DNA of 64,000 nt. Source: Myxococcales bacterium (GTDB lineage Bacteria > Myxococcota_A > Polyangia > Polyangiales > Polyangiaceae). Within the stretch, counting starts at the first letter, position 1; the number at the start of each line of letters is the position of its first letter. The notes under the pieces are model-generated. The model had not been told where the DNA came from. It made no database searches and worked only from the letters and a program-made list of their open reading frames with translations. The stretch is taken from positions 26,487-90,486 of the forward strand of contig JACRDA010000497.1 in the NCBI GenBank assembly GCA_016212965.1. Reading direction: 5' to 3'. Positions 5,036 through 47,099 of the stretch are shown piece after piece. Both the position numbers and the translations under genes were made by a program.

Positions 5036-5358
5036 GTAGACCTCCAACGAACGTCGCCTGCCCGACGGCGCGACGATCGCCCTTCATCCGTCTTCTTGTT
5101 GTTCAGGCGCGCGCCGAGCCCGCCGCGCCGAGCGATCGCCGCGGTTCCGTGCTCGCGAAGATGGTGCCAGTCATGCGTCCATTGCTCCGACGTCGCTTCC
5201 CACCCTCGCAGCGGCCGTCGCGCATTCCGCCCAGAGTGCCGCAGGGCAGCGCCGGTCGCCATGATGTGTTCCCGTCATTTTGCTGATTCGTCTCGCCGGA
5301 ACGAGACGGCTCCTGTACTGGGGAAGCTGGCGGATTTCAGTGCACACACGGCAGGGAC

Positions 5359-6021
5359 ATGCGCGTCGGACAGGTTCAAGAGCTGGTAGCGAGCACGGCG
5401 GACGCGGCCTTCGCGATCGACGCCCAGGGCATCGTCGTCGCCTGGAACGACGCCTGTGCTGCGCTCTTCGGCGTGCCCGCGGTGAAAGCGCTGGGCGAGG
5501 TTTGCGGGCCGCTCGTCGGCGGCGTGGACGAGTGCGGTCCCGTGTGCTCACCGGAGTGCTGCGTGCTGCAGGCCGCTGGCGCGCGCCGGCCGATCGGCAA
5601 CTTCGACCTGCAAGTCAGGACCGCGGCCGGCATGCGCTGGTGCAACTGCTCCGTGCTGCTCGTGGGAGCGCGCGGCGCGGCGCGGTCGTGGTCGGTCCAC
5701 GTGCTGCGCAACGTCGACCTCAGGAAGCGCCTCGAGGTGCTGGTGCGCGACTTCGTCGTGTCGTCGACCGGTCTCGCCGCCGCCGACGCCGCGAACGTGC
5801 TCGCCGTACGCCGCTCGCCCGTCCAGACCGCGCGTCTGACGGCCCAGGAGCTCGCCGTCCTGCGGCTCGTGGCGAAGGGCAGCTCGACGGCGGCGATCGC
5901 CGTCACGCTCGGCATCGCACCAGTCACCGTCACCAACCACGTGCAAAACGTGCTGCGTAAGCTCGACGCTCACAGTCGGCTCGAGGCGGTGAGGCGCGCC
6001 GAACTCGCCGGGCTCTTGTGA
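5359..6021 (+). CDS. PAS-domain LuxR/GerE-family transcriptional regulator
   Basis: ORF 5359..6021 with an ATG start. The N-terminal region is PAS-like (AFAIDAQGIVVAWNDACAALFG). The C-terminus is a LuxR-type HTH (LTAQELAVLRLVAKGSSTAAIAVTLGIAPVTVTNHVQNVLRKLDAHSRLEAV). Confidence 0.8.
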   Translation: MRVGQVQELVASTADAAFAIDAQGIVVAWNDACAALFGVPAVKALGEVCGPLVGGVDECGPVCSPECCVLQAAGARRPIGNFDLQVRTAAGMRWCNCSVLLVGARGAARSWSVHVLRNVDLRKRLEVLVRDFVVSSTGLAAADAANVLAVRRSPVQTARLTAQELAVLRLVAKGSSTAAIAVTLGIAPVTVTNHVQNVLRKLDAHSRLEAVRRAELAGLL

Positions 6022-6197
6022 CCGCGGCGAACGGCACCGGCGCGAGGGTTCGCGGCGGCCGGTCGCGGCGGCGGCCCGAGCACCACACCTAGCCGGCGAC
6101 CGTGTTCCGTGCGAACACGGTATCTTGCTCGCCACCGCAGCGGCACACGCCGCTGCCTCCCTGCTGTGTGGTAAAGGAGGGCCGACGCAAAGCTGCC

Positions 6198-7361
6198 ATG
6201 AGCGATGGACACGAGGTGGGGGGGCCGGCGTGGCTCAGGGCACACCGGGCCTGCATGGACGCGGTCGCCGAGCCGCTCCTGGCGATCGGGCCGCGCTACG
6301 AGATCCTTGCCGCCAACCAAGCGTTCGTCGAGCAGACCGGACACACGGAAGCCGAGGTGGTCGGGCGGCGGTGCCACGTCGTGAGCCACCGGTCCGAGGT
6401 GCCGTGCTGGGCCGACGGGGCCACGTGCCCGCTCGAGGCAGTATTGCAGAACCGGCGCCCCTGCGCGGTGACGCACGTGCACCTCGATGCCGAGGGCCGC
6501 CGGCGTGTCGTCGAGGTTGCCGCCGCACCGGTCCGTGATGCCCGCGGGGAAATCGTGGCCGTCATCGAGTCGCTGCGTGACGTGACGGCCGAGGTCGAGT
6601 TGCGGGAGGAGCTCGCGCGCCAGAACGCCGAGCTCGAGCAGGCGCGGCTGCGGCGCGAGCAGCACACGAGCGCCGTGTGCCACGAGCTCGGGAACATCCT
6701 GAGCTGTGTGCGGCTGAACGCCGAGGCGCTCCTCACCCGGGCCGCCTCGCCGCAGGCGAGCGCGCACGCCTCGTTCATTCTCGACGAGACCGTTCGCTTC
6801 GGCCGCCTGCTCGAGGACCTGCGCGACGCAGCGGCGATGGAGACACAGCGCTTCACGTTGCGGTGCATGCCCTGCGATCTCGTCGAGATCGTTCGCGATG
6901 CGGTCGCGGAGCACCGGGCGATCGTCGGCGACCGGCTCGTCACGGAGCTCGGTGAGCCGGGCGTGGCGGGGCGCTGGGACGGGGTGCGCCTGCGACAGGT
7001 GCTCGACAACCTCATCGGAAACGCCGCGAAGTTCTCCGAAGCGGGCGGCGCGATCCGCGTCCGCCTCGAGCGCACGGCCTCCGGCGTGCTCGTTTCGGTG
7101 GAAGATCGCGGCTCCGGTATCCCGCCGGAGCGCATGGCGCACCTCTTCCAGCCGTACGCCCGTGCGCACGCAGGCGTTGCGGGCCTGGGGCTCGGCTTGT
7201 ACCTGAGCCGCGGCATCGTCGAGGCGCACGGCGGCCGGATCTCGGCTTCGAGCACCTGGGGCGAGGGGACGACCGTGACCTTCTCGCTGCCGTGCAGCGC
7301 GGATGCCGAGCATGCGGCCGGCGCACACGATGCAACCGAGGCTGGGGCGCACCCGCAGTGA
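6198..7361 (+). CDS. PAS sensor histidine kinase
   Basis: Part of ORF 6102..7361. ATG at 6198 (MSDGHEV) lies downstream of AAGGAGG. Domains seen are PAS (LLAIGPRYEILAANQAFVEQTGHTEAEVVGRRCH), an H-box (AVCHELGNIL), an N-box (QVLDNLIGNAAKF) and G-boxes (DRGSGIP, GLGLGLYLSRGIVEAHGG). Confidence 0.8.
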   Translation: MSDGHEVGGPAWLRAHRACMDAVAEPLLAIGPRYEILAANQAFVEQTGHTEAEVVGRRCHVVSHRSEVPCWADGATCPLEAVLQNRRPCAVTHVHLDAEGRRRVVEVAAAPVRDARGEIVAVIESLRDVTAEVELREELARQNAELEQARLRREQHTSAVCHELGNILSCVRLNAEALLTRAASPQASAHASFILDETVRFGRLLEDLRDAAAMETQRFTLRCMPCDLVEIVRDAVAEHRAIVGDRLVTELGEPGVAGRWDGVRLRQVLDNLIGNAAKFSEAGGAIRVRLERTASGVLVSVEDRGSGIPPERMAHLFQPYARAHAGVAGLGLGLYLSRGIVEAHGGRISASSTWGEGTTVTFSLPCSADAEHAAGAHDATEAGAHPQ

Positions 7362-7417: not shown

Positions 7418-8551
7418 TCAGTCGAGCCCGGCGGTCGGGCTCGCCGCGACGAGGTCGCGCAGCGCGTCGAGCTCGCCTTGGGGGATCGCGAGGAAGGCGT
7501 CGGCGCAGGCCGGATCGAGCTGGGTGCCGCGCGATTTCTCGATCTCGGCGCGCGCCGCCTCGGCCGACAGCGCCTTGCGGTACGGTCGGTCCGTCGTCAT
7601 GGCGTCGTAGGTGTCGATGACGCCGAAGATGCGCGCGCCGAGCGGGATGGCGCTGCCCGCGAGCCCGTCGGGGTAGCCCTTGCCGTCGAAGCGCTCGTGG
7701 TGCGAGCGCACCATGTCCCGCGCGCCGCCCAGGAAATCGACGCCGGCGAGGATGTGGTAGCCGTGCAGGGAGTGCTTGCGCATCTCGACCCACTCTTCGT
7801 CGGTCAGCTTGCCGGGCTTCAACAAGATGGTGTCGCTGACGCCGATCTTGCCGACGTCGTGGAGCAGCGCCCCGCGCTCGATCTCGAGCACGAGGCGCGG
7901 CTCGAGGGCGAGCTGCTCGGCGTGCCGGCGCGCGTAGAGCGCGACGCGGCGCGAGTGCCCCTGCGTCTCGGTGTCGCGAAAATCGAGGGCGTTGATGAGG
8001 CCGAGCAAGAGCGCCGTCGTGCGCCCCTGGACCTCGGCGTCGAGCACGCGCGTCAGGTCTTGGAGCTCGACGTTGCGGTCGGCCAGCAGGGCGGAGAAGC
8101 GGCGGTGCTCGAGCCGCATCCGGTACTGCTCGGCCGCGTCCTTCACCGCGGCCCGGAGGTCCGAGCGCTCCCACGGCTTCGTGAGGAAGCGGAAGACGTT
8201 CGCGCGGTTGATCGCCTCGGCCGCCACGCTGAGGTCGGCGTGGCCGGTCACGAGGACGCAAGCAGTGTCCGCCGAGACCTCGCGCACGTGCCGGCAAAGC
8301 TCGATGCCGTTCATGCCGGGCATGGCGTAGTCCGCCACCACGACCGCGTAGTTGCGGCGCATGAGCAGGCCGAGCGCGTCCGCCGCGGTCTCGCACGCGT
8401 CGACCGTCCAGTCGGGCTGCCCGAGCGCGCGCGCCGTGGCCTTGAGCATGGCCGGATCGTCGTCGACCACGAGGATGCGCGCCGGCGACCTCGCGGAAAC
8501 CACCTTGTCGTCCGCAGCGCCCGGCGCCGCACCCTCTCCCAGCTCCGGCAT
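7418..8551 (-). CDS. Response regulator with HD-GYP output domain (RpfG-like c-di-GMP phosphodiesterase)
   Basis: From ORF 7418..8560(-). ATG at 8551 (MPELGEG); an alternative GTG lies at 8560. The REC domain shows ILVVDDDP...VVVADYAMPGMNG...TKPW. The HD-GYP domain shows HDVGKIGV...HHERFDGKGYPDGL. Confidence 0.85.
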   Translation of the reverse strand: MPELGEGAAPGAADDKVVSARSPARILVVDDDPAMLKATARALGQPDWTVDACETAADALGLLMRRNYAVVVADYAMPGMNGIELCRHVREVSADTACVLVTGHADLSVAAEAINRANVFRFLTKPWERSDLRAAVKDAAEQYRMRLEHRRFSALLADRNVELQDLTRVLDAEVQGRTTALLLGLINALDFRDTETQGHSRRVALYARRHAEQLALEPRLVLEIERGALLHDVGKIGVSDTILLKPGKLTDEEWVEMRKHSLHGYHILAGVDFLGGARDMVRSHHERFDGKGYPDGLAGSAIPLGARIFGVIDTYDAMTTDRPYRKALSAEAARAEIEKSRGTQLDPACADAFLAIPQGELDALRDLVAASPTAGLD

Positions 8552-8646
8552 CGCCCTCACCCTTCCGAACGGTTGGCCGCGAGTATGTCACTCGTTCACG
8601 GTCGCGGCAAACGGCGCGGACATCCTCGTAGGATACCCGAGCAGTC

Positions 8647-11600
8647 TCAAGCGTCGAGCACTGCGCGCACCTTCTGCGCCAGCGCTTCGGCCGAGAAGGG
8701 CTTCGGGATGAAGTGCGCCCCCGGGCCGAGCGCGCCCCACTCGGTCAGGGTGTCGTCGGCGTAGCCCGACACGAAGAGGATGCGCAGGTTCGGGACGACC
8801 GTCGCCAGGCGACCGGCGAGCTCGGGGCCGCTCATGAGCGGCATCATCACGTCGGTGACGAGGAGGCGGATCGCCCCGCGATGGCGCTCGCACAGGAGGA
8901 TGGCCTCGCCGCCGTTCGCCGCCGCCAGCACGTGGTACCCGGCACCGCGCAGGATGCGCACGGCTGCGCGCCGGACGCCCTCTTCGTCCTCGACGACGAG
9001 CACGGTCTCGGTGCCCCTCGCCCTGTCGCTGCCGCGCGGCAGGTCCGCGCCGGGCGCGGTCGCGGCCGCGAGCGCGAGCGCGTCGGTGCGCGGCAGGAAG
9101 ATCTCGACGCGCGCGCCGACGCCGGGCTCGGTCCACAGGTCCACGCTGCCGCCGCTCTGCGTGACGATGCCGTAGACGCTCGAAAGGCCGAGGCCGGTGC
9201 CCTTGCCCTTGTCCTTCGTCGTGAAGAACGGCTCGAAGGCCCGCTCGCGCACGGCCGGCGTCATGCCGCGGCCCGTGTCGCCGACCGCGAGCCGGACGAA
9301 GCGCCCGCTCCGGGCGCGGGCGGGACGCAGGGGGTCGCGCTCGTCGAGCTCGACGTTCGCCGTCTCGATGGTCAGGGTGCCGCCGCTCGGCATGGCGTCG
9401 CGCGCGTTGACCGCCAGGTTCATGAGCACCTGCTCGAGCTGCCCGCGATCGGCCTCGACGCGCCCGGTGTCGGGCGCGCACGTGACGACGAGCTCCACGT
9501 GCTCGCCGGCGAGTCGGCCGAGCATGGCCCGGCAGCCCTCGATGACCTCGGGCAAGAGCAGCGGTACCGGCTGCAGCACCTGCTTGCGGCTGAAGGCGAG
9601 GAGCTGGCGCGTCAGGGCGGATGCGCGCTCGGCGGCGCGCTGGATCTCGAGGACGTCCTCGCGCGCCGGGTGGCCCTGCTCCACGCCGTCGAGCGCGAAG
9701 CCCGCGTTCGTCAGGATCACGGCCAAGAGGTTGTTGAAGTCGTGCGCCACGCCGCCCGCGAGGTGACCGATGCCGTCGAGCTGCTGCGCCTGCGCGAGGC
9801 GTTCCTGGGCGCGGCGCTCCGCGGTCACATCCTCGGCGTGCAGCACCACGAGCGCGCCCGGAACGAGCCCGTAGCTGAGGATGAGGTTGCGCGTGCCATC
9901 CGCGCCCGGCAGGCGGCACTCGACCTCGCGCCGGACCGTGGCGCGCGCCTCGAGGCAGGCGGCGACGTCGGCCGCGAGCGACGGACCGAGGCGCGCGAGC
10001 TCGCCACCCGCTGCCACGCGCCCGGCGGCCGACACGGGCTCGAGCGTGGCCCGCGCGGCCTCGTTCCAGTCGGCGAGGACGAGCTCACCGTCGCGGTGCT
10101 CCCAGACGAAGGTGGCGCTCGGCAGGTGATCGTAGAGCGCGCGCGCGCGCGCCCGGCTCTCTTCGAGCTCGGCGAGCACGCGCACGTTCTCCATGGCGAC
10201 GGCGGTGGAGTCGGCGAGGGCCTGCAGCACCCCGAGCTCCTCTTCGGTCGCCGGGTGCTCGGCGGCCCAGTAGACGCCGATCGCCGCGAGCGGCCCGTCC
10301 GCGCGCACGGGTGTCATCACGAGGCTCTCGACGAAGGTCCCGCGGTAGGCGTCCTGCGGGATGCGGTCGTCGTCCCGAACGCGCTCGATGGCCACCTGCT
10401 CCTGCCGCAGCATGGCCCAGCCCGAGATGCACGCGGACAGCGGGAACTTTCGCCCCTTCCAGAGCGGCGCCACGGCGTCCTCGTCGAGGTAGTGACAGAG
10501 CGCTCCCTCCGCCACGACGAAGGTTGCGCCGTCGGCGCCGACGAGGGTGCGTGCCGCCTGGCGCACGACGTCCCCGACGGCCGCCGTCGAGCGCGCCCGC
10601 GACAGGTCCTGGATGGCCCGCGCCAGCGCGGCCATGCGCTCGGCGTGGCGCGCGCGCTCCTGCTCGGCGGCCTTGCGTGCGGTGACGACGTCGAAGACCG
10701 CGACGAAGTGGCCCGGGCTCGGGCAGTACGCCGAGACCTCGAACCACTGCCCGAGCGCCGCGACCCGGTGCTCGAAGTGCTCGGCGCGTCCGGAGCGCGC
10801 CACGCGCCCGTAGATCTCGAAGAGCTCCGGATCCGACGCGCGGATGCCGGGGATGAGCTCCGACACGCGCTTGCCGGCCGCGTCGCGGAGCCCGGTCTGG
10901 CGCTCGAACGCCGGGTTGACCTCGAGGTACTCGAAGTCGACCGTGCGCCCGTCCTCCTCGATGACGCGGCAGTAGGCGAGCCCCTCGGTCATACTCTCGA
11001 AGAGCGCGCGGTAGCGCCGCTCGCTGTCGCGCAGGGCGAGCTGGGTGCGCCACTCCGCGCGCCGCAGATCGCGGGAGCGGAGCGCGAACGCAAGATCTTG
11101 CGCGACCTCGGCGAGCAGGCTCGTCTCCTCGTCGGTCGCGAGCGACTCCGCCATCGAGACGAGCAGAGCGCCGTACACCGCGCCGTCGCACTCGAGGCGC
11201 GCCACCAGGGTACTGCGGTCGGCCGGGAAGCCCTCGCTCACGGGGCACGCGGGGCAGTCCGTCGCGGGTCGCCGGCAGATCACGGCAGCGTCGCGAAGTG
11301 CGGCGTGGAGGCACGCCGGCACCTCGCCCCGCCCGAGCACGCGCGCGATGCGCTCGAGCTTCTCGACCTCGCCGGCCTCGGCGGCGAGCTCGAGGCTTGT
11401 CCCGCGCTGCCGCACGATCGCGCACGTCGCGAAGCCCCGGGACTCGACCATGAGCTCCGCCGCGCGGGCGAGCAGCTCCGGGGAGTCGTGCTCGCGTGCG
11501 ATGAGTTGGTTGACGTTGCGGATCGCCCGGAGGACGGCGTTCAGGTGCTCGATGCGCGCGTCGGCGCGCCGTGTGGCGGTCAGCTCGACGGACAGGATGG

Positions 11601-11955
11601 CCACCCCGTCCGGAACGGGCACGAAGCGGAGCTCGAAGGTGCCGCGCGAGCCGTCCGGGAAGACGAAGTCGTTGTCGAGGCGGCGAGGCACGCCGTCGCC
11701 GAGGCAGGCCCGGAGCTCCGCGAACATCGCCGTCTGCTCGATCCCCGGGTAGCACTCCATCATGGTGCGGCCGAGGAGCGCCGCGCGTGTCGTCCTTCCG
11801 TGGAGGGTCGTCGCGTCGTTGACGTAAAGGTAGCGGAAGTCGGGGCCGATGATCTGGCAGCCCTCGAGCAGGCTGTCGACGAGGCCGCGAGGCAGCCCGC
11901 TCGTCGCACCTGGGTCGCGTGGCACGCTGAGCGATGGAGGCGCCGGTTCGGGCAT
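8647..11955 (-). CDS. Hybrid sensor histidine kinase (PAS-GAF-PAS-GAF-PAS-HisKA-HATPase-REC)
   Basis: This is the real part of ORF 8647..12435(-), starting at ATG 11955 (MPEPAPPSLS). Upstream of that the translation turns Arg/Gly-rich and junk-like. Motifs seen are GGVAHDFNNLL (H-box), QVLMNLAVNARDAM, DTGRGM, GTGLGLSSVYGIV, and a C-terminal REC (VLVVEDEE...LLVTDVMMP...PKPF). It ends 86-95 nt upstream of the HD-GYP regulator start on the same strand. Confidence 0.8.
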   Translation of the reverse strand: MPEPAPPSLSVPRDPGATSGLPRGLVDSLLEGCQIIGPDFRYLYVNDATTLHGRTTRAALLGRTMMECYPGIEQTAMFAELRACLGDGVPRRLDNDFVFPDGSRGTFELRFVPVPDGVAILSVELTATRRADARIEHLNAVLRAIRNVNQLIAREHDSPELLARAAELMVESRGFATCAIVRQRGTSLELAAEAGEVEKLERIARVLGRGEVPACLHAALRDAAVICRRPATDCPACPVSEGFPADRSTLVARLECDGAVYGALLVSMAESLATDEETSLLAEVAQDLAFALRSRDLRRAEWRTQLALRDSERRYRALFESMTEGLAYCRVIEEDGRTVDFEYLEVNPAFERQTGLRDAAGKRVSELIPGIRASDPELFEIYGRVARSGRAEHFEHRVAALGQWFEVSAYCPSPGHFVAVFDVVTARKAAEQERARHAERMAALARAIQDLSRARSTAAVGDVVRQAARTLVGADGATFVVAEGALCHYLDEDAVAPLWKGRKFPLSACISGWAMLRQEQVAIERVRDDDRIPQDAYRGTFVESLVMTPVRADGPLAAIGVYWAAEHPATEEELGVLQALADSTAVAMENVRVLAELEESRARARALYDHLPSATFVWEHRDGELVLADWNEAARATLEPVSAAGRVAAGGELARLGPSLAADVAACLEARATVRREVECRLPGADGTRNLILSYGLVPGALVVLHAEDVTAERRAQERLAQAQQLDGIGHLAGGVAHDFNNLLAVILTNAGFALDGVEQGHPAREDVLEIQRAAERASALTRQLLAFSRKQVLQPVPLLLPEVIEGCRAMLGRLAGEHVELVVTCAPDTGRVEADRGQLEQVLMNLAVNARDAMPSGGTLTIETANVELDERDPLRPARARSGRFVRLAVGDTGRGMTPAVRERAFEPFFTTKDKGKGTGLGLSSVYGIVTQSGGSVDLWTEPGVGARVEIFLPRTDALALAAATAPGADLPRGSDRARGTETVLVVEDEEGVRRAAVRILRGAGYHVLAAANGGEAILLCERHRGAIRLLVTDVMMPLMSGPELAGRLATVVPNLRILFVSGYADDTLTEWGALGPGAHFIPKPFSAEALAQKVRAVLDA

Positions 11956-12123
11956 ACGGGCGTGCGCGTCGTGGCTGCGACACGCGAATCGGGCCGAGCA
12001 TACCACTCGGGCCGGCCTGCATGCGTCGATTGCGACGAGCGACCGCGCCTGACTCCGCACCGCCACCGTGCTAACTTGCCAATCGCCACGGCGCCGGTTG
12101 CGCGTGGCACACACAGGGGGCCA

Positions 12124-14505
12124 TTGGACGACAGGCACGACACCTCGGGTGGCGATCCGTCCGGTCTTGCGTCGCCGACCGTCGGCGTAGCCGCCGGCGG
12201 GGCGCCGGTCCTCGCCTCGGCACTCGATTCCCGGGCCTACGAGCTCCTCGGTCGGGCGCTCGCCGGCTCGCCCGACCGTGCGGTGGCGCTGGTCGAGCGC
12301 GGCGGCGTCCTGCGCTTCGTCAATGCCGCGGCTGCGCGGCTCCTCGACAGCGTGCCGGAGCAGCTGGCGGGTCGCCCGCTCGCGGAGCTCCTCGGCGCCG
12401 AGCGCGCCGACGTGATGGTGCGGTCGATCGAGCACGTGCTTGCGACCGGGCAGAGCGTACAGGGCGTCGACGAGGTACGCCTTCCCGGCGGCCCGGTGTG
12501 GCTCGACTCGACGGTGGCGCCGTTCCGCGACGGGCCGGGCGCGAGCTCCGTCGCGCTCGTCATCGCCAAGGACGTGAGCGCGCGGATGCGCGCCGAGGAG
12601 CTACACCGCGCCATCCTCCAGACGGCCGTGATCGGCGTATGGCTCGTGGAGGTCGTGGACGGCGTCTCCCGCCTGGTCGAGGTGAACGACACCTACTGCG
12701 CCATGTCGGGCTACGGCCGCGACGAGCTCGTGGGCCAGCCCGCGTCGTTGCTCGACGGTGGCGACACGCCGACGCCGATCCCCGCGCCCCAAGCCTGGTC
12801 GTGTGCGGGCTGCGCGCGTTTCGAGGCGCGCCATCGGCGCCGGGACGGCTCGCGTTTCGAGGTCGAGGTGAGCGTCCAGCCGCTCGGCCGGACCGGGCGG
12901 ACGGTCCATTTCATCCATGACGCGAGCGAGCACCGCCGCGCGGTCCGCGAGCTTCAGGCCTCGAACCACGAGATCGAGGTGGCGCGGCGCTACTGGCAGC
13001 AGACCTTCGACTCGATGGGCGACGCCGTGACGATCCACGATGCGGGCTTTCGCATCCGGCACGCGAACCGCGCGGCGCTGACGCTGCTCGCGGGCGACGA
13101 GGCGTCCGTGCTCGGCCGGCACTGTCACGAGCTCTTCCATGGCCTGGCAGACGGCCCCGTGTCGGGGTGTCCCGGGCGCGAGGTGCTCGCGGCCGGCCAA
13201 TGCCACAGCTTTCGCCTCCACGAGCCGCACCTCGGCCGGTGGCTCGACGTGACCTGCGCTCCGCTCCGCGACGCCCAGGGCAAGCCGGAGCTCGTGCACG
13301 TCGTTCGCGACGTGACCGAGAAGCGGCGGCTCGAGCAGCAGTTCCAGGCGGCGCAGCGCATGGAGGCGGTCGCGCGGCTCACGGCCGGGGTGGCGCACGA
13401 CTTCAACAACCTGCTCGGGGTCATCCTGGGTGCCGCGAGCACCGAGGCGGAGACGGCCGAGGAGCGCAGCGAGGCCAGCCTTGCGATTCTTCACGCCGGC
13501 CGCCGCGCCGCGGAGCTCACGCGCCAGCTCCTGGCGTTCTCGCGGCAGCAGGTTTTCCGCATGGATCGGCTGGACGTGCGCGACGTCGTGCGCGACGTCG
13601 CGCGCCTGCTCGTGCACGTGGTGGGCGCGAGCGTCGCCGTCGAGGTCGCGGTCGCCGACGAGAGCTGCGTCGTCCTCGGCGACCGCGCCCAGCTCGAGCA
13701 GGTGCTCATGAACCTCGCGCTCAACGCCCGCGACGCCATGCCGGCGGGCGGACGGCTCGTGCTCTCCGCGCGCCGCGGTCACGTGCCGCCGGGCCGGTGC
13801 GCGGAGCTGCCCGAGCGCCTCGCGGGTCAGGTCGTGGTGCTGACCGTCGTCGACACCGGCACCGGCATGGACGCCGAGACGCTTGCGCTCGCGTTCGAGC
13901 CCTTCTTCACGACCAAGGAGCCCGGTCGGGGCACCGGGCTCGGCCTCGCCGCCGTGCACGGGATCGTGCACCAGCACGAGGGCCTCGTGAGCGCCGAGAG
14001 CGAGCCCGGCCGAGGCACGTGCTTCACGATCTTCCTGCCGCTGGCGCCGGAGGGGGTGTCGGTCTCGAAGCCCGCCCCTCGCACGGCGCGGCCGCCGCAG
14101 CCGGCGAGGCTCCGCGTCCTGGCCGTCGAGGACGAGCCGGACCTCCGACGGCTCGTCGAGCGGATCCTCGCGCGGGCGGGCTGGGAGCCGACGGTCGCGG
14201 CCGACGGCGCGGCCGCGCTCGCGCGCGCGCGCAGCGCCGCCGAGCCCTTCCACGTCCTCGTGACCGATCTCCGCCTGCCCGACATGACGGGCCTCGACCT
14301 CGCCGAGCGCCTGCTCGCCGTGCAACCGGACCTGCGCGTCGTGCTCACGACCGGCTTCACCGATGCGGCGCCGGACTGGTCGCGGCTCGGCGACGCGCCC
14401 ACCTGCTTCCTCGCGAAGCCGTGGACGGCCCAGGAGCTCGTCGAGGCCATCACGAAGACGGCCGCGGACGACACCGCCCCCGTGAGCAGCACCCCCCGGG
14501 TCTGA
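12124..14505 (+). CDS. Hybrid sensor histidine kinase (3x PAS-HisKA-HATPase-REC)
   Basis: This is the real part of the 8713..14505(+) ORF, whose first 3.4 kb is antisense to the previous kinase. There is no ATG. The best start is TTG at 12124 and the start is uncertain, because a later GTG at 12283 would truncate PAS1. Motifs seen are AGVAHDFNNLLGVIL, QVLMNLALNARDAM, DTGTGM, GTGLGLAAVHGIV, and REC (VLAVEDEP...VLVTDLRLPDM...AKPW). Confidence 0.7.
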   Translation: MDDRHDTSGGDPSGLASPTVGVAAGGAPVLASALDSRAYELLGRALAGSPDRAVALVERGGVLRFVNAAAARLLDSVPEQLAGRPLAELLGAERADVMVRSIEHVLATGQSVQGVDEVRLPGGPVWLDSTVAPFRDGPGASSVALVIAKDVSARMRAEELHRAILQTAVIGVWLVEVVDGVSRLVEVNDTYCAMSGYGRDELVGQPASLLDGGDTPTPIPAPQAWSCAGCARFEARHRRRDGSRFEVEVSVQPLGRTGRTVHFIHDASEHRRAVRELQASNHEIEVARRYWQQTFDSMGDAVTIHDAGFRIRHANRAALTLLAGDEASVLGRHCHELFHGLADGPVSGCPGREVLAAGQCHSFRLHEPHLGRWLDVTCAPLRDAQGKPELVHVVRDVTEKRRLEQQFQAAQRMEAVARLTAGVAHDFNNLLGVILGAASTEAETAEERSEASLAILHAGRRAAELTRQLLAFSRQQVFRMDRLDVRDVVRDVARLLVHVVGASVAVEVAVADESCVVLGDRAQLEQVLMNLALNARDAMPAGGRLVLSARRGHVPPGRCAELPERLAGQVVVLTVVDTGTGMDAETLALAFEPFFTTKEPGRGTGLGLAAVHGIVHQHEGLVSAESEPGRGTCFTIFLPLAPEGVSVSKPAPRTARPPQPARLRVLAVEDEPDLRRLVERILARAGWEPTVAADGAAALARARSAAEPFHVLVTDLRLPDMTGLDLAERLLAVQPDLRVVLTTGFTDAAPDWSRLGDAPTCFLAKPWTAQELVEAITKTAADDTAPVSSTPRV

Positions 14506-14508
14506 CCG

Positions 14509-15582
14509 ATGTCCACGAGCGACCAGGGCGGCCCCGAGCGCCGCAAGCCACTCGAAGCGCGCTTCGTCCCCCGCGCGGCGGTGGCGCTCGCGGCCGAGCT
14601 GCGGCTCGGAGACGCGGTGCTCGCTGGACGCGTCGAGAACCTGTCCGTGGGCGGAGCGTTTCTATGTGTCCCGGCGGACGCGCGTGCCGACGTGCCGATG
14701 GGGGCTCGCGTGGAGCTCCGGGTGGAGCTACCCGACGGGTCGCTCGCGGCACCGGCCCGAGTCGTGTGGCTGCGCGCCGACCGTGGCGCGAGCGAGCGTG
14801 GGATCGCGCTCGGCTTCGAGGATCTCCGCGAGGAGGCGGCCCTGCGGATCCACCGCGTCGTCGAGGCGCTCGAGCCGATGGCCTGGGAGGGAGCGCGGTC
14901 CGAGCGCGCCCTGCCGCGCGAGGTCGCCGCGCGCTTCGTCCCGGTGCTGCGCCGCATGGCGGCGCGGCTCGCGGGGTCGCGCCCGTCGAGCCGGACGAGT
15001 CCGGACGATCTCGTGGGCGCCGGCTTCCTCGGGCTCGTGGAGGCGCACCGGCGCTGGCCGTCGCGCACGCTCGCGGGGTTCGAGCCGTACGCTCTCGTCT
15101 GCATGCGCGGCGCCATGGTCGACGAGCTCCGCCGGGCCGATCCGTTGACGCGGCGGCAGCGGCGCCGCGCGCGCGAGATGGAGCTCGCGAGCGCGCGGCT
15201 CTGGACGGGGCTCGGCCGTCCGCCCGACGACGTCGAGGTGGCCGACTACCTCGGTCTCGGCCTCGACGAGTACCACGCCTGCCGCCGCGAGCTCGCCTCG
15301 GCGCAGACCGTCGCCTGGGTCGACGGGGCCGACCAGGTGGCGGCTCCGGCCTTCGACGCGCGCCCCGACGAGCACGTGATCGAGCGCGAGTCGCGCGCCG
15401 CGATCGAGGTCGCCTTGGCGGCCCTGCCCGAGCGCCTGCGTCGCGTGCTCGAGCTCTACTACGGCGACGAGCTCACGCTGCGCGAGATCGGCAACCTGCT
15501 CGGCGTGAGCGAGTCGCGCATCAGCCAGCTCGTCGGTCAGGCGGTCGCCACCCTGCGCAGTCGCGTGACCGACGCCGGCTGA
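14509..15582 (+). CDS. PilZ-domain / sigma-70-family (FliA/WhiG sigma-28-like) fusion protein
   Basis: ORF 14509..15582, with ATG 4 nt after the kinase stop. The N-terminal ~110 aa is PilZ-like (ERRKPLEAR...VENLSVGGAFL...ARVVWLR). The C-terminal part has sigma regions 2-4 (DLVGAGFLGLVEAHRRW, YALVCMRGAMVDELRR, LPERLRRVLELYYGDELTLREIGNLLGVSESRISQLVGQAVATLR). Confidence 0.75.
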   Translation: MSTSDQGGPERRKPLEARFVPRAAVALAAELRLGDAVLAGRVENLSVGGAFLCVPADARADVPMGARVELRVELPDGSLAAPARVVWLRADRGASERGIALGFEDLREEAALRIHRVVEALEPMAWEGARSERALPREVAARFVPVLRRMAARLAGSRPSSRTSPDDLVGAGFLGLVEAHRRWPSRTLAGFEPYALVCMRGAMVDELRRADPLTRRQRRRAREMELASARLWTGLGRPPDDVEVADYLGLGLDEYHACRRELASAQTVAWVDGADQVAAPAFDARPDEHVIERESRAAIEVALAALPERLRRVLELYYGDELTLREIGNLLGVSESRISQLVGQAVATLRSRVTDAG

Positions 15583-15641
15583 AGAGGCGCGATTCCCCTC
15601 AAGGTCGGCCGGCGGCGGCCGTTCGTGAGGGAGGAGCCCTC

Positions 15642-16820
15642 ATGAAAGCCGTCCGTCTCCGCCCCCGCCCCCGCCACGACCGCCGCGCGTCGCGCGTCGC
15701 GTGCGCCGCTTCGTTTGCCGCGGTGATGCTCGGCGCGGGGGCCGCGCGCGCGCAGCTCGGTTACGGGTTTCACGCCGAAGGGGCGGCGGCTCGCATGGTC
15801 GGCGAGCCGAAGTCGTCGCAGTTCGGCTGGGGCGGTGCCGGCCTCGTCGCGCCCGAGCTCACGGTGGCGGGGCGCGTCGGCTTCGAGGCGGCGCTCGGGG
15901 CGGTGGGCCTGTCGGACGGCGCCGTCGACGAGGCCGGGCTCGCCCCCACGGGCGCGGGTGCCGCGTTCCTGCTGCTGCCCGGCGTGCGGGTGCATCCCTT
16001 CGGCCAGCCGAGCGACCCCGGCCTCGCGGAGGCCCATGGCCTGTGGCTAGGGGGCGGGGGCGGCCTCGCCGTGACCGGCGGCTCGTCCCGGCCGGCCCTC
16101 GACGCGCGGCTCGGTTACGACCTCGACACCGGCCCGCTCCTCGTGGGCCCCTTCGCCGGGTACGTGCACATCGTCGAGCCGAACGACTCGGTGCGCCCCG
16201 CGGACGGGCGCGTCGCGCTGTTCGGGATCCACGTCGCGTTCGCGTCCCCTGCTCCGACGCCCGCGTCCGCGCCGGAGTCGACCGAGCCCGAGCACCGCGT
16301 GGCGAGCGTCCCGCCCGCCCCGGCGCGGGCGCGCGACGCGGACGGCGAGGGCGAGGTCGAGCTCGACGACCTCTGCCCGGCCGACGAGGAGACCGTGAAC
16401 GGCTACGCCGACACGGACGGCTGCCCGGACGAGCGCGAGGTGCGCGTCGTGGGCAGCGAGATCGTGCTCGACGAGCGCGTGCACTTCGCGGTGAACGGGG
16501 CGGCGGTCGAGGTGCGGAGCTGGCCCTTGCTCGCGCGGGTCGGGCGCCTCCTGCGCGACAACCCCCAGTACGCGCTCGTGCGCATCCAGGGGCACGCCGA
16601 CGACACGGGCGAGGAGAGCTACAACCAGCGCCTCTCGGTCGCACGCGGCCAGAGCGTGCGCGAGCTCATCGTGCGGACGGGCGTCTCCGACGCGCGACTG
16701 GTCGTCGAGGGCTTCGGCGAGACCCGGCCCGAGGCCGAGGGCCAGACGGAGCTCGCGCGCCGGAAGAACCGGCGGGTCGAGCTCCACATCCTCGAGCGCA
16801 GCGAGGCAGGCGATGAATGA
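15642..16820 (+). CDS. OmpA-family outer-membrane protein (N-terminal beta-rich domain plus C-terminal OmpA/peptidoglycan-binding domain)
   Basis: In frame with the tail of ORF 13167..16820. ATG at 15642 is preceded by GGGAGGAG. There is a signal peptide (AASFAAVMLGAGAARAQ). The C-terminus carries the OmpA_C signature (VHFAVNGAAV...IQGHADDTGEESYNQRLSVARGQSV...GFGETRP...NRRVEL) and thrombospondin-type-3-like DxDxD motifs (ADTDGCPDE). Confidence 0.8.
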   Translation: MKAVRLRPRPRHDRRASRVACAASFAAVMLGAGAARAQLGYGFHAEGAAARMVGEPKSSQFGWGGAGLVAPELTVAGRVGFEAALGAVGLSDGAVDEAGLAPTGAGAAFLLLPGVRVHPFGQPSDPGLAEAHGLWLGGGGGLAVTGGSSRPALDARLGYDLDTGPLLVGPFAGYVHIVEPNDSVRPADGRVALFGIHVAFASPAPTPASAPESTEPEHRVASVPPAPARARDADGEGEVELDDLCPADEETVNGYADTDGCPDEREVRVVGSEIVLDERVHFAVNGAAVEVRSWPLLARVGRLLRDNPQYALVRIQGHADDTGEESYNQRLSVARGQSVRELIVRTGVSDARLVVEGFGETRPEAEGQTELARRKNRRVELHILERSEAGDE

Positions 16821-17832
16821 CCTCACGCGCCGCGCGACGGTCGCGGCGGCCCTGTGCCTGTCCGCGGGCTGCGATCCGCTGGTGGGTGGCGAGTGCGCCG
16901 CCGGCCTCGCGCCGGTCGACCAGGTGTGCGTGCCCGTCGAGACCGTGGCCGCGTCGGGTGGGCAGGGGGGCTCCGGCGCCACGACGGCCGGGGGCGCCGG
17001 CGGCTCCGTGCTCGGTACGGGTGGCGCAGGAGCCTCCGAGGGCGGCGCGGATGCGTGCCCCTCGCCCCTCGCGGTGTGCGACGGCGCCTGCGTCGATCTC
17101 GGGACGAGCCCGCTCCACTGCGGCGCCTGCGGCCACGCCTGCCCGACCGAGGTGTGCGTGGAGGGTAGCTGCACGGGCGAGCCCGTGGGTCACGCCATCG
17201 TGCTCGGCGTCGACTACCGGCAGGTGGCGCTCGCCTCGCCGTCCGCGGTGCTGCTCGGCAACGCGGTGTTCATGACCGCCCACGACCCGGTGCGCCTCGT
17301 CGACTACCGCAAGCACGCCAGCGCTCTCGCGACCGCGCGGGTCGACGCGATCCTCGCCGCGGAGGCCGCCGCCCGCGGGCGCGGACTCGTGATCGAGCAC
17401 CTCGCGGACGCCGACGCCCTCGCCTCGTGCGTGGCGAACTCCACCTGCGACGCCGTGCTCGTGCATCACCAGACGGTGCTCTCCGGGCTCGCTTCGTCGC
17501 CGGGCGGCGCGTGGGCGGCTCCGCTCGCCGCCCTGGTCGATGCGGGCGGCGTCGCCGTCGTCCTCGCGAGCGCCACGGGCTCGAAGTCCGCCACGGCGGC
17601 GTTCGTGGACGCGCTCGGCCTCGTGCCGGCGACGGCCATCACGCCCGTCGGCGGGCAGCTCGTCTACCACGAGGGCTGGCTCGACGTGCTCGGGCAGGGC
17701 GTGCTCGCTCCCTTCCTCGCGCCGCCCGGCAGCGGCAGCTTCGTCACCGACGCCGAGCCCGGCGCGACCCTCTCGTTCGTGCTGCGGAGCGCGTCCGGCG
17801 AGCCCATCGCCATCCATCGCGCCTACCCCTGA
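16813..17832 (+). CDS. Lipoprotein with a Cys-rich motif and an alpha/beta C-terminal domain (hypothetical)
   Basis: ORF 16813..17832. The ATG overlaps the OmpA stop by 8 nt (ATGAATGA). Lipobox is LCLSAGC. It carries CDGACVDLGTSPLHCGACGHACPTEVCVEGSC, the same D..T.P.HCG.CG..C unit that is repeated in 41683..43884. Confidence 0.65.
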   Translation: MNDLTRRATVAAALCLSAGCDPLVGGECAAGLAPVDQVCVPVETVAASGGQGGSGATTAGGAGGSVLGTGGAGASEGGADACPSPLAVCDGACVDLGTSPLHCGACGHACPTEVCVEGSCTGEPVGHAIVLGVDYRQVALASPSAVLLGNAVFMTAHDPVRLVDYRKHASALATARVDAILAAEAAARGRGLVIEHLADADALASCVANSTCDAVLVHHQTVLSGLASSPGGAWAAPLAALVDAGGVAVVLASATGSKSATAAFVDALGLVPATAITPVGGQLVYHEGWLDVLGQGVLAPFLAPPGSGSFVTDAEPGATLSFVLRSASGEPIAIHRAYP

Positions 17833-17898
17833 CGGCTCCTTGCGGCGCGGCCCGATCTTTTCGCTCAAGTCCCGGGCCGCTCGGCCGTTGGTAGCGAC

Positions 17899-18579
17899 AT
17901 GAACGCGCCCCGCGAGACCACGACCTGGCTTTCCACCTTCGGTGCCGTCGCGCTCCTCGCCACCGTGTCCGGCACGACCGCGTGCTCGTCCGCGTGGTCC
18001 GGGCGGATGGCGGCGCACGGCTCGCACGACTGGGATCGCAGCCACCCGACGCAGCTCTGCGCCGAGGACTCCGTTCGCGCGCAGCGCGCGCCCCTGCCCG
18101 AGGGCGCCCCGGCGGAGCTCGCCGCCACCTGCGAGACCGGCGACGCGCGCGCCTGCAGCGTGCTCGGCGTGATGTACGAGGTCGGTCGCGGTGCCCCGAT
18201 GGATCGGGCACGGGCCGCGACGCTCTTCGGCTGGGCGTGCGAGCAGGGCAACCTGTGCGGCTGCGTGAACCTCGGGCGCCTCGAGCTCTTGGAGGGCACG
18301 ACGAACGAGGCGCTCGTGGCCACCACCCGGCGCTTCGACGCGATCTGCCAGCAGGGCAGCGCCGAGGCCTGCTACTGGCTCGGTCTCGTCAAGCGCGCGA
18401 GCGCGACGGAGCCCGCCGAGCGCGCGGTCGCGGAGCTGCTCTTCACGCGCAGCTGCGCGGCGGGCTACTCGGACGCGTGCTTCGAGCTCGGCCTCTTGCA
18501 CGACCACATCGACTCGGTCGCGAGCCGCGACGTGACGACGGTGGTCGCGCACTGCCCGGGCGGCCGCTGCGGCGAGTGA
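17899..18579 (+). CDS. Sel1-like (SLR/TPR-family) repeat lipoprotein
   Basis: ORF 17899..18579. Lipobox is LLATVSGTTAC. Repeats look like Sel1 units (CETGDARACSVLGVMYEVGRGAPMDRARAATLFGWACEQGNLCGCVNLG; CQQGSAEACYWLGL; CAAGYSDACFELGLL). Confidence 0.7.
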   Translation: MNAPRETTTWLSTFGAVALLATVSGTTACSSAWSGRMAAHGSHDWDRSHPTQLCAEDSVRAQRAPLPEGAPAELAATCETGDARACSVLGVMYEVGRGAPMDRARAATLFGWACEQGNLCGCVNLGRLELLEGTTNEALVATTRRFDAICQQGSAEACYWLGLVKRASATEPAERAVAELLFTRSCAAGYSDACFELGLLHDHIDSVASRDVTTVVAHCPGGRCGE

Positions 18580-19550: not shown

Positions 19551-21782
<2,232 letters not shown>

Positions 21783-21956
21783 CGGCGCTCTCCCAGCGGT
21801 GCCGGGCAGGCTCCCGTCCGGCCCCGCTCCGCAACCCCTGAGTCCTAGCTGTATCGCGCGGCGGCGACCGTCGCAAGGCGCGCCCGAGAACGAGCCGCCC
21901 GCCTGCTCCGGTCGAGAGCCTTCGCGCCCGTGCGGGATCGAGGCTAAGGCCGGCGC

Positions 21957-22775
21957 ATGCATCCGCCTCCACCGGCCTTCCACGCTCGCTACGGTCGCGT
22001 CGCGCTCGTCGCGGGCGGCTCGGAGGGCCTCGGCGCCGAGCTCGCGCGTGGGCTCGCCGCGCGCGGGCTCGACCTCGTGCTCGCGGCGCGGCGCGCGGAG
22101 CCCCTGTCCGCTCTCGGCGCCGAGCTCGCGCGCGCGCACGGCGTGTCGGTGCGCTCCGTCGCGGCCGACCTCGCCGAGCCCGACGGCGTCGCCGCGGCCG
22201 TCGCCGCGACCGAGGGGCTCGAGCTCGGGCTCGTCGTGTGCAACGCGGCGCTCGCGCCCGTCGGTCGCTTCCTCGCCGAGCCGGCGGCGCGGCACGAGCG
22301 CGTCCTCGCCCTCAACTGTCGCGCACCGGCGCTGCTGATCCACGCGCTCGCCCCGCGCCTCGTCGCGCGTGGGCGCGGCGGCGTCGTCGTGTGCTCCGCG
22401 CGGGCCGGCCATCGGGGAACGGCGCTCGTCGCACACTACGCGGCGACGAAGGCCTACCTGCGGGTGCTCGCGGAGGGGCTCTGGCAGGAGCTGCGCCCGC
22501 ACGGCGTGGACGTGCTCGCCTGCTGTCCGGGGCCGGTCGAGACGCCGACGTTCCGCAAGGACGAGCCCGCGACCGCAGGCTGGCTGTCGCTGCCCCCGAT
22601 GGACCCCGCCGCGGTGGCCGAGCAGACGCTGCGCGCGCTCGGCCGCGGGCCGGTGGTGGTCCCCGGGCTCCGGCCCGCGCTCGCGAGCGCACTCGTGACG
22701 CGCCTGTTGCCGCGGCGCCTCGCGATCGCGCTCGCCTCGGCGGGCACGCGCGCGATGTACGCGCGGCGCACGTAG
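21957..22775 (+). CDS. Short-chain dehydrogenase/reductase (SDR) family oxidoreductase
   Basis: ORF 21957..22775. It has a Rossmann motif (VALVAGGSEGLGAELARGLAARG), a catalytic YxxxK (YAATKAY) and NAAL. Its stop TAG (22773-75) abuts the stop CTA (22776-78) of the convergent ERG2-like gene. Confidence 0.8.
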   Translation: MHPPPPAFHARYGRVALVAGGSEGLGAELARGLAARGLDLVLAARRAEPLSALGAELARAHGVSVRSVAADLAEPDGVAAAVAATEGLELGLVVCNAALAPVGRFLAEPAARHERVLALNCRAPALLIHALAPRLVARGRGGVVVCSARAGHRGTALVAHYAATKAYLRVLAEGLWQELRPHGVDVLACCPGPVETPTFRKDEPATAGWLSLPPMDPAAVAEQTLRALGRGPVVVPGLRPALASALVTRLLPRRLAIALASAGTRAMYARRT

Positions 22776-37014: not shown

Positions 37015-37208
37015 CTCAGTCTGGATTTCGCGCTGCGCGCGAGGCTTCGGGCTCCAGGCTCCAGGCTTCAGGCGGGATTCGGTCTTGCCGACCCATTCCG
37101 AGCTTGCCCGGTAGGTGACTTCGCGGCGGTCGACTCGGCGCGGATTCCTCCCTGAAGCCCGTAGCCGGTAGTCTGGAGCCTTCGCGCTCGCGCGAAATCG
37201 AGGCTCAG
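37015..37208. repeat. Long imperfect inverted repeat filling a convergent intergenic region (bidirectional terminator or MITE/REP-like element)
   Basis: The left arm (~37015-37085) and the reverse complement of the right arm (~37139-37208) share ordered blocks: GATTTCGCGC (37024-37033 vs 37190-37199), GCGCGA, GGCTCCAG, GGCTTCAGG and GGATT/GGAAT. There is also a short direct repeat, ggctccaggctccaggcttcagg. The right arm overlaps the stop codon of 37205..40720. Confidence 0.6.
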
Positions 37209-40720: not shown

Positions 40721-40777
40721 CGGCCCGCATTGGACCACGTTCGTGCACCCGGCGCACGAAGGTGCCCGGCGCGCCCG

Positions 40778-46900: not shown

Positions 46901-46985
46901 TCCTTTGCTGTGCGGAGGCGGTCCCGTCGAGCAAGGCGGCCACGGCGAAGAAAGAGGCTCGGAGCCAAAGCTTGCAGGCGTTCAC
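43917..46985 (-). CDS. Secreted beta-propeller (NHL/SMP-30-like) protein with a CC..DC.DGN.CT.D.C repeat module, a MopE-like DNDC motif and a MYXO-CTERM-type sorting tail
   Basis: This is the real part of ORF 43917..48473(-). GTG at 46985 is preceded by GGAGGG with a 6-nt spacer, and gives MNACKLWLRASFFAVAALLDGTASAQQ (signal peptide). Propeller-like repeats include GRVAVDTNGDVWIAN, AVAVDREGKIWVANW, TYDLNGKIWASGY and LSVDFDGFIWSV. The Cys-rich module spans 44247-45242. The tail is GGGGCACVLAGDD...ALVAALSALGLVLARRRRRG. Confidence 0.7.
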   Translation of the reverse strand: MNACKLWLRASFFAVAALLDGTASAQQRTFTTNADFDLGILDNVRHAPVNDQLVLGRTAVSKTRLVWVSNTSPGGTAPTPLSPGWLVRIDTTLGPTLGRQTARFDSVLTSINGLPTGASTSGNNPGRVAVDTNGDVWIANRAYYEGAKQGSLSKFSGNLAHCIDRNNNGVIDTSHDANGDGIVDPYKTPALGTPAAEVEYYAQADECILTTIPVGAVGDIPRAVAVDREGKIWVANWQGHTVYRFNPNEPVALETSRVFTPAFGWPTTAWFYSAATADDYIYLTSNPGWSGVGNTGQIIRIHINNIAQADSVTCGGGVGTCGSVYGLVAIPGTHKAWAGGYSGTGVYKVDFDASPPTCTCVSVPSQVTAVTYDLNGKIWASGYSSNNVYRINPTTNVIEATCPTGGANPHGLSVDFDGFIWSVQDGPNHLVRFDPVQTAANCGRTAYPIDRGAVPMPPGQNAYNYGPYLYSDFTGVQIDRQAPYTYLGSWDSSGYDGGADDIPWSTVRWNLEPQGAVPALTSLTVNVRAANTLAALGQAAYAPAVNGAPLAGIAGRYVQVRTNLKGPGWVTSVLSDVTVVGPCDPIDQSCCISNTDCDDGNPCTADVCPTPGGQCQHAPVFDCCAQDPDCNDSDLCTTDTCNVAINACNHAPVPNCCNSSSNCDDGVFCTVDQCSGPGGTCTSTPISGCCQTDADCDDGNGCSVDVCPPNNLCQHTPTPGCCTVDADCRENPDDLCTQNGCEILSGTCTLVDLKPLGCCNVDPDCSDGDPCTTDSCTGPGGTCQHLDDPTCCTPNDPQVGQPCDVPQSPYDQAPCQPGQLVCVNGQFDCVGAVKPGLEVCDGADNDCNGIVDLPGNCPSPSDICLWGQCVAPCSPGEFPCPAGQQCYDGHCVPISCANTVCPSGQTCVNGLCEDQGTGGAGGSGTGGSAPTGGGGQSAGGSPPTGGTSHGGTGQGGTGNGHAPAGDWRLATGGGGCACVLAGDDRDSEAALVAALSALGLVLARRRRRGAGAEPSQPSRGDR

Positions 46986-47099
46986 GGGAAGCCCTCCAGT
47001 CTCCGTCAGAGTAGGGGAGCTTGACGCAGGCCACAAGGCTGGCGGACGCTCGCGACCCGCCCGACCCGCTCCTCGCGCTCCACGCCCCCGCCTCGTCGC

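Follow-up and report, generated by a model that had tools for sequence, protein, structure and literature searches.

Cyclic di-GMP (c-di-GMP) reaches transcription through repressors and activators, such as BldD, FleQ, VpsT and MrkH, and through one anti-sigma factor, RsiG. MrkH, a PilZ activator that works with the sigma-70 holoenzyme, sets a precedent for PilZ domains in transcription control. Fused domains that modulate a sigma factor without a separate anti-sigma factor are also established, namely region 1.1 of sigma-70 and the C-terminal extensions of the ECF41/ECF42 type (ECF, extracytoplasmic function); neither is known to act as a second-messenger receptor. In Streptomyces and Rubrobacter, c-di-GMP controls a sigma-28-family factor through the RsiG-(c-di-GMP)2-sigma-WhiG switch (PMC7005675, PMC8325347; PDB 6pfv, 7lq4). 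Here, we analyzed a stretch of 64,000 nucleotides from a Myxococcales bacterium (the window; assembly GCA_016212965.1, contig JACRDA010000497.1), in which a single gene at 14509-15582 on the plus strand encodes a PilZ domain fused to a sigma-28-type factor. We read its product, with a probability of about 0.65, as a sigma-28 paralogue whose own N-terminal PilZ domain would bind c-di-GMP and thereby set its activity in cis.

Of the known systems, the RsiG-WhiG switch comes nearest to the fusion, and the likeness lies in a sigma-28-family factor under c-di-GMP control, which in our case is putative, and WhiG is among the best solved relatives of the fusion protein. However, in that switch the nucleotide sits on a separate coiled-coil anti-sigma factor, RsiG, with a motif of its own, whereas here a PilZ domain is fused to the N-terminus of the sigma factor, and the two arrangements belong to Actinomycetota and Myxococcota, respectively. 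Since the receptor would be the fused PilZ domain, the fusion would work like the RsiG-WhiG switch without being a member of it. In regions 2-4 the protein is 32-36% identical to the FliA proteins of Pseudomonas aeruginosa and Escherichia coli (Foldseek), which work with the anti-sigma factor FlgM (PDB 1rp3, 9wsf, 9wsm, 6pmi), and some of its relatives are found in flagellar gene clusters, but it has 135 extra N-terminal residues made up of PilZ and linker, and the copy in the window has no flagellar neighbours. With the PilZ effectors MotI/YpfA, YcgR, MapZ, Alg44 and MrkH it shares the canonical fold and both binding motifs, MotI being the best match in sequence and fold; those effectors act on motors, enzymes or DNA, and none is itself a sigma factor. 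FleQ and FlrA feed c-di-GMP directly into flagellar transcription, as the fusion family might, and a receiver-less sigma-54 activator gene directly precedes the PilZ-sigma gene in four related loci (L011, L012, L013 and L016; L-numbers, as well as P0010, denote related PilZ-sigma loci compared with the window, L006 being a 92%-identical orthologous locus). FleQ, in contrast, binds c-di-GMP on an AAA+ domain and works with sigma-54, while the receptor here would be PilZ, at the sigma-28 level of the hierarchy. Finally, the PilZ domain occupies the same N-terminal position as region 1.1 of sigma-70.

The components are therefore not new, given that PilZ, sigma-28 and the control of sigma-28 by c-di-GMP (via RsiG) are all known already. 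The fusion itself appears to be: it is not described in a survey of PilZ domains (10.1101/814665) or in the catalogue of Myxococcus xanthus PilZ proteins (PMC8316039), nor was a PilZ-sigma fusion found in recent reviews, in a 2026 comparative study of WhiG or by name searches, although this literature coverage is incomplete and the result is one of absence of evidence.

The open reading frame (ORF) runs unbroken from ATG 14509 to the TGA ending at 15582 and encodes 357 residues, with a third-position GC content of 0.84-0.96 throughout, the domain boundary included, in a window of 73.8% GC. Its assignment rests on the ORF and its translation, on Pfam and NCBIfam matches and on 39 homologues of the same architecture. 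In Pfam, residues 21-118 match PilZ (PF07238) at 47.5 bits (cut-off 22.5), and Sigma70_r2 (34 bits) and Sigma70_r4 (59.3 bits) are both above their cut-offs. Sigma70_r3, at 20.9 bits, stays under its cut-off of 25.3; AlphaFold2 (AF2) models helices there, and region 3 is among the precomputed Pfam families recorded for several homologues. A single polypeptide joins a canonical PilZ barrel to sigma regions 2-4 through a short conserved linker. All on the plus strand, these parts are the PilZ beta-barrel with its C-terminal helix (residues 21-121, 14569-14871; AF2 and Foldseek), the conserved linker EPMAWEG...LP (residues 122-136, 14872-14916; delimited by conservation, by a low predicted local distance difference test score, pLDDT, and by where FliA/WhiG alignments begin), sigma region 1.2/2 (residues 137-211, 14917-15141; Sigma70_r2 match and alignment with P. 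aeruginosa FliA and Streptomyces venezuelae WhiG), region 3 (about residues 215-271, 15151-15321) and region 4 with its helix-turn-helix (about residues 297-355, 15397-15573). The first-pass annotation of this DNA, made from its letters, had proposed a single ORF for PilZ and sigma-28-type regions 2-4, as the ORF call and Pfam bear out, and the computational tests that it had set all turned out favourable to its interpretation. Metagenome assemblies are open to the general possibility that two adjacent genes were merged by an assembly or sequencing error, and nothing beyond that speaks for such an artefact here. Against it, the frame and the third-position GC are uninterrupted, and at least 39 independent sequences, which come from different samples and assemblers, show this fusion together with its conserved linker, so that the family survey refutes the idea, to which we give practically no credence.

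In that survey, a word-indexed search of 5.8 billion proteins recovered 19 clusters (90% identity) with PilZ and sigma domains; their source names are Polyangiaceae or Deltaproteobacteria metagenome-assembled genomes (MAGs), and they are annotated merely as sigma-70 family or FliA. By exhaustive profile search of 1.84 billion representatives, we obtained 24 full-length clusters and two fragments at 50% identity, and the matches ranking below those 26 clusters cover the sigma part only. A scan of one genome per GTDB species yielded 13 fused genomic loci, all of them in MAGs labelled Polyangiaceae, Polyangiales, Myxococcales or the like. The PilZ-sigma fusion is a real but rare family, and the architecture, whose survey in Myxococcota had been suggested earlier, recurs in at least 39 diverse sequences of the Polyangia type. 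Close sigma-28 relatives that lack PilZ exist as well. Among ten other sigma-28 relatives with N-terminal extensions of 70-130 residues, no recognisable domain was found in the extension (one contains a fragment of an acyl-transferase match), which marks PilZ as the specific fusion partner. In a rough neighbour-joining tree, the members with flagellar context all fall in one group (58% bootstrap), and the window protein forms a separate clade with those of L006 and L022 in 60/60 replicates, its sister group being unresolved. One Polyangiaceae MAG, JBGAID01, has three PilZ-sigma paralogues (contigs L010, L011 and L018); one follows a sigma-54 activator gene, one precedes a GAF-PAS-GGDEF gene and one lies among unrelated genes.

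The N-terminal part, which had been called PilZ-like from its letters, scores as PilZ above the Pfam threshold and is modelled as a barrel whose best structural matches are c-di-GMP-bound PilZ domains. AF2 gives six strands (22-103) and a helix at 108-121, with pLDDT values of 76-96 per 10-residue block over residues 21-120. Foldseek matches this part to the c-di-GMP-bound PilZ domains of MotI, YcgR, CeSA, Alg44, MapZ and PA0012, with target-normalised template modelling (TM) scores of 0.62-0.81 against the single-domain PilZ chains (CeSA, Alg44, MapZ and PA0012). The best match of an N-terminal profile is Bacillus subtilis MotI/YpfA (2e-8), with both motifs aligned, followed by Alg44, BcsA and MapZ. 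The RxxxR motif is R18-F-V-P-R22 (14560-14574, plus strand), aligned with the RxxxR of MotI/YpfA, and its Arg residues are invariant in all three alignments used (A1, 19 full-length sequences; A2, 33 N-terminal sequences; A3, a further alignment). The [D/N]xSxxG motif is N44-L-S-V-G-G49 (14638-14655, plus strand), 21 residues after R22, with N or D at position 44 in 39/39 sequences; S46 and G49 are, like R18 and R22, invariant in A1 and A2. Every one of the 39 family members combines RxxxR, a gap of 20-22 residues and [D/N]xSxxG, at an identity to the window protein of about 30-46% outside the window's own clade. Purifying selection on the two c-di-GMP-binding motifs is strict, and judging from its sequence this PilZ domain belongs to the canonical, binding type rather than to the degenerate ones.

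The first-pass annotation had warned that the first motif, taken as ERRKPLEAR, was not a clean RxxxR. This was a misreading, as the real motif directly follows and is both clean and invariant. Its fallback was a repurposed domain, such as an autoinhibitory or anti-sigma-like module. PilZ would then act independently of a ligand, by permanent inhibition of this kind or by serving as a structural adaptor. PilZ domains that do not bind c-di-GMP do exist, M. xanthus Pkn1 is predicted to be one (PMC8316039), and Xanthomonas and Pseudomonas PilZ proteins are among the weaker matches of our domain. However, non-binding PilZ domains have lost the motifs, which are here canonical and invariant in sequences only about 30-46% identical, and c-di-GMP enzymes recur as neighbours of the gene. 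A repurposed, non-binding PilZ domain is thus unlikely, and we consider ligand independence quite improbable.

The sigma part is most similar to the sigma-28 factors FliA and WhiG. The best NCBIfam models are FliA (NF005413, 174.3 bits) and FliA_WhiG (TIGR02479, 158.3 bits), far above all others. Its reading as sigma-28-like, already made from the letters, agrees with the solved relatives of residues 136-355, of which P. aeruginosa FliA (2.6e-34) and S. venezuelae WhiG (9.8e-34) are the best, at about 1e-34, followed by E. coli FliA (3e-31) and Aquifex FliA (1.6e-19). Other sigma groups match at 2e-6 or weaker, and Foldseek on the sigma part gives the same ranking, with sigma-28 structures as top matches. 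Alignments to canonical FliA/WhiG begin only at about residues 133-140, and therefore residues 1-135 represent an addition, located at the place of sigma-70 region 1.1. In the linker, P136 is invariant, as is W126 in A1 and A3, whereas conservation of W126 in A2 is at least 90%; pLDDT falls below 50 at residues 123-130 in the full-length model and at 126-130 in a model of residues 1-211.

This linker also contains an ATG (14878, M124, in the MAWEG segment), from which it is conceivable that a sigma-only product is made beside the full-length one, the latter then acting mainly as a c-di-GMP-regulated competitor or reservoir. The ATG that had been pointed out earlier as a possible internal start is indeed present, with GAGG 11 nt upstream, and the close PilZ-less sigma-28 proteins begin a few residues before the LPRE motif. 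The Met, however, is not conserved in the family, being T, I, L or V in several members while W126 is kept; the Shine-Dalgarno-like sequence is weak and distant, and the coding signal is continuous over the boundary. Two products are, in our judgement, a rather remote prospect.

According to the cis reading, c-di-GMP would bind to the N-terminal RxxxR loop and the barrel, and the liganded PilZ domain, at the place of sigma-70 region 1.1, would act via the conserved EPMAW linker on the way sigma region 2, and possibly region 4, engages the core RNA polymerase, or on promoter opening. The nucleotide would then act as a switch in cis, in the role that RsiG with c-di-GMP has towards WhiG in trans. 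As for the direction, inhibition of the sigma factor by high c-di-GMP would be favoured, by analogy with the flagellar relatives and with RsiG-WhiG.

Several points weigh against this reading. The FliA and FliA_WhiG scores lie under the curated cut-offs (201 and 189.6), so that the protein is a divergent relative and not a curated member of these families. AF2 predicts no confident contact between PilZ and sigma region 2 (predicted TM-score 0.39 for the full length and 0.54 for residues 1-211), and docking in cis is thus without support from the apo models. Among the genes of the 64-kb window, no flagellar one was found, and the gene context varies across the family. In addition, the boxes of the two promoter candidates in the window (see below) each fit the canonical sigma-28 promoter at 5/8 positions (GCCGTT, not GCCGAT), and their AAG-N16-CGTT core resembles ECF-type promoters too.

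Given that no fixed interface is seen between PilZ and sigma region 2 in the apo models, an action in trans is a serious rival, even though we hold it to be unlikely. The c-di-GMP-bound PilZ domain would in that case offer a surface that recruits or releases a partner, thereby tethering, localising or sequestering the sigma factor, and candidates for such a partner would be an RNA polymerase subunit, the neighbouring kinase or REC proteins, the HD-GYP enzyme described below, or a component of the cell pole or the flagellum. PilZ domains acting in this manner have precedents in MapZ-CheR1 and MotI-MotA. As in the single-domain PilZ adaptors Alg44, MapZ and MotI, the free N-terminus here carries the RxxxR loop, which YcgR has in an interdomain linker, and the conserved EPMAW segment, modelled at low confidence, resembles a short interaction motif. 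On the other hand, no conserved partner gene accompanies the family, whose context is variable, and the very existence of the fusion suggests that nearness of PilZ to the sigma domains is of importance.

Upstream of the fusion gene lies a hybrid histidine kinase gene (12124-14505, plus strand; multiple PAS-HisKA-HATPase-REC, Pfam), whose TGA (14503-14505) is separated by a 3-nt gap from the sigma ATG, in agreement with the hybrid kinase placed there by the first-pass annotation. Its TTG start at 12124 is preceded by AGGGGG and kept in the orthologous locus L006, where the 3-nt spacing is also present. Such a gap suggests a shared transcript and translational coupling, both of which are probable for the kinase and sigma genes. 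The two ORFs are in the same frame, parted only by TGA-CCG (14503-14511), and readthrough of the stop would yield a kinase-REC-PilZ-sigma polyprotein, but the shared frame is probably coincidental (a 1-in-3 chance). Divergent from this operon is a second hybrid kinase gene (8647-11955, minus strand; PAS-GAF-PAS-GAF-HisKA-HATPase-REC, Pfam; start near 11955 read from the sequence), followed by a predicted c-di-GMP phosphodiesterase gene of the RpfG type (7421-8587, alternatively delimited at 7418-8551, minus strand; REC-HD-GYP, with HD_5 at 120 bits and Response_reg at 88 bits). The latter corresponds to the HD-GYP gene that had been noted about 6 kb away; it is found at 5.9 kb, with the HD and HHE...GYP motifs intact. 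Genes for a PAS-LuxR(GerE) regulator and a PAS histidine kinase (5287-7358, plus strand) adjoin it, and the 5-15 kb part of the window is a dense signalling island of four sensor/regulator genes, the phosphodiesterase and the sigma factor.

Downstream of the fusion gene, an OmpA-family envelope protein with a signal peptide is encoded at 15642-16820 (plus strand; OmpA 59 bits), with the Shine-Dalgarno sequence GGGAGGAG before its ATG and at the same position in L006 and L022. The gene for a Cys-rich lipoprotein (16813-17832, plus strand; weak Stig1 match) overlaps its end by 8 nt and is conserved in L006 and L022, and a gene for a 226-residue lipoprotein with Sel1-like repeats follows (17899-18579, plus strand; no Pfam match, lipobox LLATVSGTTAC read from the sequence). 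In L022, whose sigma factor is 66% identical to that of the window, a REC-HD-GYP orthologue (77% identity) is immediately upstream of the PilZ-sigma gene on the same strand, and the downstream order is as in the window, with the OmpA-family gene, the Cys-rich lipoprotein gene and the next gene. This arrangement defines HD-GYP, PilZ-sigma and the envelope genes as the conserved module of the window's clade; in the window, the two predicted hybrid kinases are placed between HD-GYP and PilZ-sigma. In this clade, the c-di-GMP level would probably be set locally by the conserved REC-HD-GYP phosphodiesterase, here beside two PAS hybrid kinases.

Across the family, the neighbourhoods are of two kinds, one flagellar and one with signalling and envelope genes, the latter including the window and L006. 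In other members of the family, the gene is associated with flagellar genes in L004, L007, L012, L013 and L016, an association not seen in the window. In L004 and L007, it comes after flgD, flgE, fliL, fliM/N, fliO, fliP, fliQ, fliR, flhB and a REC gene, and cheX-type genes and a REC-GGDEF gene lie downstream of it. It is a few kb downstream of motA and motB in L012 and L013, and a flagellar rod/hook-family gene lies about 5 kb upstream in L012, L013 and L016. In classical descriptions, myxobacteria are gliders that lack flagella; the flagellar genes are in MAGs labelled Polyangiaceae (L004:1-7433, L007:835-8017, L012:2964-5560, L013:2962-5557, L016:3022-5613), and motA and motB of L012 have orthologous genes in L013 and L016.

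Genes of c-di-GMP metabolism recur near the fusion gene. A REC-EAL gene is about 1.2 kb upstream of it in L014, an EAL gene and a Pkinase-PilZ gene are upstream in L015, REC-GGDEF and Pkinase-PilZ genes stand beside it in the P0010 locus, and a GAF-PAS-GGDEF gene is directly downstream in L010. Altogether, a c-di-GMP-metabolising gene was found within a few kb of the sigma gene at eight related places examined, besides the one at 5.9 kb in the window. By a rough, uncomputed estimate, such genomes carry one c-di-GMP-metabolising gene per several hundred kb, and going by that estimate the association would be far above expectation. The Pkinase-PilZ gene just upstream in two unrelated loci (L015:6762-8069; P0010 locus, 6022-7338) encodes a Ser/Thr kinase with a C-terminal PilZ, which is the architecture of M. 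xanthus Pkn1.

A family of small lipoproteins (133-148 residues, no Pfam match, with a conserved C.SYS[FY]ARER-like motif) adjoins the PilZ-sigma genes in L001, L002, L014, L015 and L017 (L001:7520-7951; L002:7475-7879 and 9056-9460; L014:9259-9705; L015:about 9477-9850, minus strand; L017:10965-11366). They were considered as anti-sigma factors and rejected, since they have lipoprotein signal peptides and no Pfam match; being exported, they look like targets rather than anti-sigma factors. In L002 (7475-9460, on a contig shared with L009), the PilZ-sigma gene has a copy on either side of it, both on the opposite strand; the two copies are 91% identical, each has its own promoter-like site, and the pair is either a local duplication bracketing the sigma gene or an assembly peculiarity.

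Promoters of sigma-28 are of the TAAA-N15-GCCGATAA type. In the window, a candidate sigma-28-type promoter, TCAAGGTC-N11-GCCGTTCG (15599-15625, plus strand), stops 16 nt short of the OmpA-family start codon, and a second, TCAAGTCC-N11-GCCGTTGG (17865-17891, plus strand), stops 7 nt short of the Sel1-like lipoprotein gene, whose ATG is at 17899. These two are the only occurrences in the window of their shared pattern TCAAG-N14-GCCGTT, for which 0.04 would be expected. Both candidates are kept in L006, where the boxes of the 17865 site are identical, and in L022 they read TCAAGGCC-N11-GCCGTTGG and TCAAGATC-N11-ACCGTTGG, with the rest of each intergenic region diverged. The probable output of the sigma factor in this clade would be the adjacent OmpA-family, lipoprotein and Sel1-like lipoprotein genes, each unit being behind a conserved sigma-28-like promoter candidate.

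Sites clearer than those of the window, T[AT]AAG-N14/15-GCCGA, which is close to the textbook TAAAGTTT-N11-GCCGATAA, are found before the small lipoprotein gene in L001, in both L002 copies and in L014. In these four cases the end of the second box is exactly 7 nt from the ATG, suggesting leaderless, sigma-28-dependent mRNAs. The REC-CheX gene of the flagellar loci L004 and L007 has CTAAAG-N15-(G/T)CCGTT in front of it. A relaxed promoter pattern gave 14 matches, against 1.8 expected, in the window and 15 related loci. Other candidates were set aside. The best canonical sigma-28 match in the window, TAAAGGTA-N12-GCCGATGA (11825-11852, plus strand), about 300 nt upstream of the kinase-sigma operon, is probably due to chance, as it falls, in antisense orientation, within the 5' portion of the divergent kinase gene that codes for PAS and has no conserved counterpart in L006, and a promoter-like match at 18549 of L012 was discarded because it lies inside a minus-strand ORF. 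A scan of 11500-17000 for sigma-70 promoters returned no sites.

The remainder of the window includes further genes of unusual architecture. Convergent to the envelope genes is a GAF-PtsP gene (19554-22775, minus strand) of the enzyme I type of the nitrogen phosphotransferase system, the frame of which is open for about 345 codons upstream of GAF, so that either the true start is internal or the protein has an uncharacterised N-terminal region. A 1190-residue ORF (37208-40777, minus strand) combines a membrane part similar to MFS and ATP:ADP translocases with HEAT repeats and a C-terminal cyclic-nucleotide-binding domain, an unusual architecture for a transporter. Two large repeat proteins of the secreted type are encoded at 43920-48608 (minus strand; weak matches to Vgb_lyase, SGL and Dictyostelium CTDC repeats) and at 56758-58857 (plus strand; six DUF4215 repeats and a PA14 domain), and a radical-SAM/SPASM gene is located at 50733-52310.

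A broader proposal, plausible but put forward only tentatively, would make this protein the first case of a sigma factor doubling as a cyclic-dinucleotide receptor, in which PilZ-bound c-di-GMP would directly gate holoenzyme formation or promoter opening without an anti-sigma factor. Such a protein might serve as the flagellar sigma-28 in flagellated, uncultured Polyangia and might, in the lineage of the window, have been re-deployed along with a dedicated HD-GYP phosphodiesterase to drive a few envelope genes. If true, a sigma factor with a built-in PilZ domain would be the shortest possible path from a messenger to promoter selection. Compact and contained in a single protein, it would also lend itself to studies of how sigma factors are controlled by a ligand-binding domain in the place of region 1.1. 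For the organisms themselves, the family points to flagellar gene clusters in uncultured Polyangiaceae, and it offers concrete candidate promoters and target genes.

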